Of a stretch of 9,895 bases of DNA, positions 6,736-7,011 are shown one piece after another. The DNA comes from a virus. Taxonomy: Duplodnaviria > Heunggongvirae > Uroviricota > Caudoviricetes. How positions within the stretch are numbered: position 1 is the stretch's first letter; each line of letters starts with the position of its first letter. The stretch is from the IMG/VR virus record IMGVR_UViG_2529292886_000013, one strand, 5' to 3'. Both the position numbers and the translations under genes were made by a program. The notes under the pieces were generated by a model. The model worked only from the letters and a program-made list of their open reading frames with translations, had not been told where the DNA came from and made no database searches.

Positions 6736-6879
6736 TTAGTGAATGCTTTTGCTTGATCTCAGTTTCAGTATTAATATCCATTTTTTATAAGCGTCGACGG
6801 CTTCACGAAACATCTTTTCATCGCCAATAAAAGTGGCGATAGTGAATTTAGTCTGGATAGCCATAAGTGTTTGATCCAT
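6736..6879 (-). CDS. kil: Lambda Kil (host killing / cell-division inhibitor), 47 aa
   Basis: The C-terminal 47 aa of the 115-aa track ORF ([47 protein letters not shown]) equal lambda Kil as recalled. Confidence 0.8.
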
Positions 6880-7011
6880 TCTTTGGGACTCCTGGCTGAT
6901 TAAGTATGTCGATAAGGCGTTTCCATCCGTCTGTAATTTACGGGTGATTCGTTCAAGTAAAGATTCGGAAGGGCAGCCAGCAACAGGCCACCCTGCAATG
7001 GCATATTGCAT
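6848..7011 (-). pseudogene. cIII: cIII (FtsH/HflB inhibitor) with an apparent 1-nt deletion; reading frame runs into kil
   Basis: The cIII start MQYAIAGWPVAGCPSESLLERITRKL is intact, then the frame switches (QTDGNALSTYLISQESQR) and continues in frame into MDQTLMAIQ... of kil. The locus is 164 nt where lambda cIII (165 nt, overlapping kil by 32 nt) would give 165. Confidence 0.6.

Follow-up and report, generated by a model that had tools for sequence, protein, structure and literature searches.

A frameshifted cIII reading into an intact kil in a decaying lambdoid prophage of Escherichia coli O157:H7

The CIII protein of bacteriophage lambda is an inhibitor of FtsH that stabilizes CII, and lambda Kil is a division inhibitor that depends on FtsZ and ZipA. 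In lambda, cIII, whose product has 54 residues (NP_040620), is found between ea10 and kil, and its open reading frame (ORF) of approximately 54 codons ends 32 nt inside kil, in another frame. Even in the wild-type phage, ribosomes translating cIII cross the start of kil. Residues 14-37 of CIII are both essential and sufficient for its function; they form an amphipathic, oligomerizing helix that inhibits FtsH competitively, and the substitutions S17A, R24A, L26A, R27A, or R32A each suffice to produce a cIII-minus phenotype (Kobiler et al., 2007; PMC1838920). As for Kil, all the N-terminal fusions that have been tested were active, or even had enhanced activity (Haeusser et al., 2014; PMC3961180).

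The DNA considered here, referred to as the window, is the whole stretch of 9,895 nt that was analyzed. It comprises a lambdoid prophage located beside ybhC (window 1-1284), at attB-lambda, which is a homologue of Sp3 of strain Sakai. Its cIII occupies the same locus as that of lambda, between ea10 and kil, and the surroundings of the gene are 99% identical to those of lambda cIII over 401 nt, with an identical upstream region.

The cIII lesion and the resulting reading frame

The start of cIII is intact, as the first-pass annotation had proposed. On the minus strand, the Shine-Dalgarno sequence AAGGAG (7018..7023) and the ATG start codon (7011-7009) are those of lambda, and so are codons 1-26, which encode MQYAIAGWPVAGCPSESLLERITRKL. 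The frame is then lost at codon 27, and the remainder of cIII, whose remnant extends over 6848..7011 of the minus strand, is a pseudogene. Base-by-base alignment with the lambda genome (NC_001416) places TTACA-GACGG in the window opposite TTACGTGACGG in lambda, and the alignment with the prophage of strain LSU61 displays the same difference. The lesion itself (6931..6932, minus strand) reads CAGAC in the window vs. CGTGAC in lambda and LSU61, for a net loss of one nucleotide; in terms of codons, TTA-CGT-GAC in lambda corresponds to TTA-CAG-AC in the window. It is a compound GT->A change, made up of a G->A substitution at 6932 and the deletion of the adjacent T on the minus strand, and the alignment confirms that it does not lie in a homopolymer. 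The nucleotide initially reported as missing after the residues RKL does correspond to a frameshift, but the alignments with lambda and LSU61 show that the event was not a bare one-nucleotide deletion. The lambda cIII sequence used for comparison at that stage was correct, and the coordinates and sequence statements given there were all accurate.

Beyond codon 26, the cIII frame is shifted by -1. As kil is positioned in exactly the -1 frame relative to cIII and no stop codon intervenes in the overlap, the cIII start opens an ORF of 91 codons that ends at the kil stop, in agreement with the fusion frame first proposed. This open frame (6736..7011, minus strand; 91 codons and a stop, 276 nt) encodes residues 1-26 of CIII, an 18-residue linker, and the full 47-residue Kil. 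The linker, QTDGNALSTYLISQESQR, is encoded at 6880..6933 (minus strand) by the former codons 27-44 of cIII, read in the kil frame, and the former cIII stop codon, TAA at 6850-6848, is out of frame. The cIII-kil fusion is an incidental outcome of the natural out-of-frame overlap of both genes. A programmed ribosomal frameshift or a designed fusion of overlapping genes is not supported, since the phage records, complete E. coli genomes, and species-representative, viral, and metagenome contigs searched yielded no copy of the allele beyond assemblies of the G5101 type. The AAA-TTA-CAG-ACG site of the window arose by mutation and, to our knowledge, is not a recognized slippery heptamer.

The kil gene proper (6736..6879, minus strand) is intact, with 47 codons and a stop, and its product is the same as lambda Kil. 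Its GGAG motif (6892-6889) and its ATG (6879-6877) have the same DNA sequence as in lambda, its stop codon ends at 6736, and the protein matches the entire Pfam profile Lambda_Kil (PF06301; positions 1-31 of 31, E = 9e-20). On any transcript that covers the region, initiation at the cIII site would give CIII'(1-26)-linker-Kil, and kil could be initiated at its own Shine-Dalgarno sequence and ATG. Because N-terminally tagged Kil proteins are active, the fusion, if it were produced, would probably be toxic.

With respect to CIII, residues 27-54 are missing from the window product. Within the essential segment 14-37, 15 of the 24 residues are kept, but positions 27-37 are replaced, with 2 of the 11 residues unchanged. 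The shifted frame encodes Q in place of R27 and A in place of R32, and over residues 27-37 the helical hydrophobic moment drops from 0.73 to 0.25. The match to the Pfam profile Lambda_CIII (PF02061) covers profile positions 1-26 of 42 and goes no further. CIII function has almost certainly been lost, judging from these changes. The first-pass annotation had predicted that the central helix needed to inhibit FtsH would be lost; a functional loss fits the absence of both R27 and R32, but the helix is not missing as a whole, as the cut falls after residue 26 and more than half of the segment is preserved.

Prophage architecture and expression

The minus strand of the element carries int, xis, exo, bet, gam, kil, cIII, and ea10, and the plus strand a truncated O (O'), P, ren, and ninB. 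Identity to lambda reaches 97.8% across the ral-to-orf61 block, and elsewhere the element is mosaic. This level of identity, the mosaicism, and the ybhC flank show that the window is neither lambda itself nor a construct made by cloning or recombineering. The lambda att core, GCTTTTTTATACTAA, is found at 1331-1345, between ybhC and int; its T-run (around 1338) has one T fewer in three other assemblies of the element, which represents either real variation or a difference in homopolymer assembly.

The largest lesion is a deletion of approximately 3.75 kb relative to LSU61, whose junction is located at 7788..7790 of the window (the missing segment corresponds to 2675-6419 of the LSU61 locus, L002). 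It encompasses the 5' end of O, cII, cro, a cI-type repressor gene, a hicAB pair, the pL/N region, and ral, and neither an N region nor an intact ral gene is left in the window. The junction at about 7789 displays microhomology of 1 bp at most. As a result of this deletion, the divergent early operons have been joined without pL, pR, the repressor, and cII. Next to the junction, O' (7905..8396, plus strand; an ORF of 163 aa) harbors a 66-bp iteron deletion and a 1-nt deletion near 7911-7927 (at about 7923). The former took place between direct iteron repeats (7905-7930) and leaves approximately one of the four lambda-type ori iterons, inside O'; the copy of O' in strain PV15-279 carries the PGAP label 'frameshifted; incomplete'. 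Farther away, a 5-bp deletion relative to LSU61, at 3256, affects a plus-strand hypothetical gene of some 200 codons. LSU61 and Sakai (ECs_0804) have an intact copy of this gene, and the PV15-279 annotation labels it 'frameshifted'.

In contrast with these lesions, the window retains intact copies of kil and of the ea10-gam-bet-exo block, which is compatible with recent decay and is no proof of neutrality. The last gene of the pL operon that remains upstream of cIII is an intact ea10 (7084..7452, minus strand; DUF2528). In the ea10-cIII intergenic region, a T->C difference from lambda at 7077, shared with LSU61, is part of a GC-rich inverted repeat (GCGGTTTTACCGC to GCGGCTTTACCGC). Just past the kil stop, a C5->C4 change at about 6735 (6716-6781, minus strand) reduces GamL, of 138 aa in lambda, to an ORF of 21 codons, and the 98-aa Gam (6366-6662) is the only form of Gam encoded in the window. 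This change is shared with the complete LSU61 genome, and it is thus a polymorphism of the lineage rather than a sign of poor sequence.

What remains of the pL operon appears to be essentially untranscribed. The fusion is probably not expressed, because pL, cI, cro, and cII have been lost, no N region or intact ral is left, and most of ori is gone. A consensus scan, which constitutes weak evidence, detected no sigma-70-like site on the minus strand between 6600 and 8400, and by the same weak approach no new promoter was found at the deletion junction. Two terminator-like hairpins are present upstream of cIII, of which the one directly upstream of the gene, followed by a T-run (7041..7060, minus strand), is the same as in lambda. 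The stable carriage of an intact, unrepressed kil by many isolates likewise suggests that the operon remnant is transcriptionally silent. Read-through or weak promoters antisense to O' and P may nevertheless be a source of expression.

Distribution and origin of the allele

The exact 91-aa product of the fusion frame has been deposited as EFX07686.1, 'lambda Kil [Escherichia coli O157:H7 str. G5101]', and the same protein is found on approximately 131 contigs, in 135 blocks, among NCBI and Logan assemblies of SRA runs, which represent independent runs. At the DNA level, the allele was checked in four of these approximately 131 carrier contigs, and the diagnostic 31-mer CACCCGTAAATTACAGACGGATGGAAACGCC was found in all four loci fetched (L004-L007), which come from different runs and assemblies. 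One of them, L005 (SRR15808754), has no difference from the window over all 9,160 shared nt. A genuine mutation, deemed plausible in the first-pass annotation, is borne out by this identical allele in many independently sequenced isolates. The re-sequencing recommended there is in effect provided by the independent assemblies, which do not restore the missing base.

Outside of these assemblies, no exact match to the lesion allele was found in 50,697 phage records, whose best matches are of the intact lambda type (99.0% identity, 403 nt vs. 401), nor in 5,426 complete E. coli genomes, in which the best match (99.2%) is also of the intact type. A homologue of the cIII stretch is present in 1,791 of these 5,426 genomes. 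Exact-pattern scans similarly returned no match in genome_contigs (species-representative), viral_contigs (IMG/VR), and metagenome_contigs (JGI). The closest complete relative, the O157:H7 strain LSU61 (99.8% identity overall), has an intact cIII of 54 codons, annotated as 'protease FtsH-inhibitory lysogeny factor CIII'. On this comparison the lesion is derived and lineage-specific, as both LSU61 and the best phage and E. coli copies among the matches listed are intact. A widespread natural variant of cIII, or an error in the lambda reference, can be discarded, given that the best matches are of the lambda type and none of them matches the variant exactly; in addition, the old lambda record V00638 agrees with NC_001416.

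The history of the element can be followed among its relatives. The deletion junction has a 100% match in a single complete E. coli genome, that of PV15-279, a beta-glucuronidase-positive O157:H7 strain, and this beta-glucuronidase-positive lineage also includes G5101, from which the fusion protein was deposited (PMC6256406). PV15-279 is 100% identical to the window over 1-5504 and 7644-9895, and window positions 5505-7643, a 2.1-kb block that comprises exo'-bet-gam-kil-cIII-ea10, are replaced by IS1203/IS629 (L003 8818-10125). This replacement represents a deletion associated with an IS that took place inside the same clone. The immunity deletion and the frameshift occur together in all carriers examined, and PV15-279 has the junction but has lost the cIII region. 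In Sakai, int and bet of Sp3 are both pseudogenes, and the match to the window extends only from ybhC to the middle of bet before resuming in the nin region. The exo gene of two other carrier isolates is annotated as two pieces of 169 and 48 aa, with a single G->A change at window position 5070 (L004 7942, L007 1999), which looks like further ongoing decay. The differing lesions in Sakai, PV15-279, and the carrier isolates indicate that the element is decaying independently in several sub-lineages, the cIII lesion being one such event.

The most probable explanation, in which we have high confidence, is that a loss-of-function frameshift in cIII arose in a defective prophage undergoing neutral decay and has been clonally inherited in the G5101/PV15-279 branch of O157:H7. 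The attributes of a pseudogene are all present, with an intact outgroup copy in LSU61, the same lesion in independent members of the clone, and other inactivating lesions in the element. The mutation would be neutral, because the operon remnant appears to be essentially untranscribed and CIII has no CII left to protect; it would have been fixed by drift or hitch-hiking, as one among several decay events in the element.

Alternatively, the inactivation of cIII might have been selected. CIII is harmful to the host through its inhibition of FtsH (PMC1838920), and the immunity region, including cI, has been deleted, so that leaky expression of a bacteriostatic CIII in the absence of the repressor could have favored cIII-null mutants. 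However, the very deletion that removed the repressor also took pL and spans the N region, which leaves no obvious source of expression, and kil, the more toxic of the two genes, stays intact. Moreover, the mutation puts the Kil domain under the translation start of cIII, and given that N-terminal Kil fusions are active (PMC3961180), this arrangement would bring more toxicity, not less, if the region were expressed. Such a selection is thus quite improbable.

In another scenario, the 91-aa CIII'(1-26)-linker-Kil would be produced and put to use, for example as a stress-inducible block to division driven by the cIII initiation region. The persistence of the allele across many isolates might be taken in this sense, but clonal descent accounts for it, and the neighboring genes are decaying. 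Similarly, the frame is open, cIII retains its Shine-Dalgarno sequence and ATG, the whole Kil domain is present, and published N-terminal Kil fusions are active or enhanced (PMC3961180), but pL is gone and no promoter is evident. The region is also dispensable in the same clone, as PV15-279 has IS1203 in its place, and it is deleted in Sakai Sp3. A functional role for the fusion is therefore very improbable, and the idea that a cryptic prophage has provided beta-glucuronidase-positive O157:H7 with a new, expressed CIII(1-26)-linker-Kil, as a domesticated and possibly enhanced division inhibitor, is equally improbable. Both selection against CIII toxicity and a functional fusion are disfavored, because pL has been lost, kil is undamaged, and the same clone can dispense with the block in its entirety.

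Lastly, an artefact of sequencing or assembly, with a base missing in one assembly only and a cIII that is really intact, might be suspected from the absence of the allele in the complete E. coli genomes and phage records searched and from the frequency of single-base indels among assembly errors, but its likelihood is minute, as approximately 131 contigs from independent runs and a GenBank draft genome carry the identical allele, and the change is compound, with a substitution and a deletion, outside a homopolymer; this explanation is effectively refuted.

Comparison with known systems

Located in a degraded prophage remnant that has lost its promoter, this cIII is an ordinary inherited pseudogene. 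Its exact product was already deposited as EFX07686.1, and the annotation of that 91-aa 'lambda Kil' entry is better understood as two units, a cIII pseudogene and, after it, an intact kil. The importance of the case is limited: it reveals no new mechanism and has no bearing on the open questions of the lysis-lysogeny decision, but it offers a clean and verifiable example of stepwise prophage decay, in which the element at attB-lambda is disabled differently in different O157:H7 sub-lineages. As a clonal marker of the G5101-type lineage, one could use the GT->A allele in combination with the junction at about 7789.

Among its closest relatives, Sp3 of Sakai and the elements of PV15-279, LSU61, and O55:H7 occupy the same site beside ybhC, with 99.7-100% identity over the shared segments. 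Unlike the window, the LSU61 and O55:H7 elements have kept the immunity region and an intact cIII. In Sakai Sp3, a deletion starts in bet' and reaches into the nin region, whereas the window combines the immunity deletion with the cIII frameshift.

Two sets of laboratory constructs can be compared with the two parts of the fusion. The engineered His6-FLAG-Kil, of approximately 10.5 kDa (PMC3961180), likewise consists of an N-terminal extension on an intact 47-aa Kil, and it is of a size similar to that of the 91-aa product. However, strong promoters drove the engineered fusions, whose activity was demonstrated, whereas expression and activity of the window fusion are probably nil. On the CIII side, the residues changed in the R27A and R32A alleles (PMC1838920) are also changed in the window, to Q and A, respectively, and a cIII-minus phenotype is to be expected. 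Those alleles, however, are single substitutions in full-length proteins that still oligomerize, whereas in the window a frameshift replaces the C-terminal half of CIII and adds Kil. Codon 32 of the shifted frame (6916-6918, minus strand) encodes Ala, which coincidentally is the residue found in the published dominant-negative CIII R32A. An expressed fusion could, in principle, interfere with the CIII protein of a superinfecting or co-resident lambdoid (Stx) phage.

Lambda itself provides the most direct comparison. The Shine-Dalgarno sequence and the first 26 codons of cIII are identical in the two, but from codon 27 on the window is out of the cIII frame, and both the partner cII and the promoter pL are absent from the element. 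The lambda frame terminates inside kil, out of register with it, whereas that of the window joins the kil frame. As ribosomes on lambda cIII already travel past the kil start, translation of the mutant would differ only by continuing in the frame of kil.
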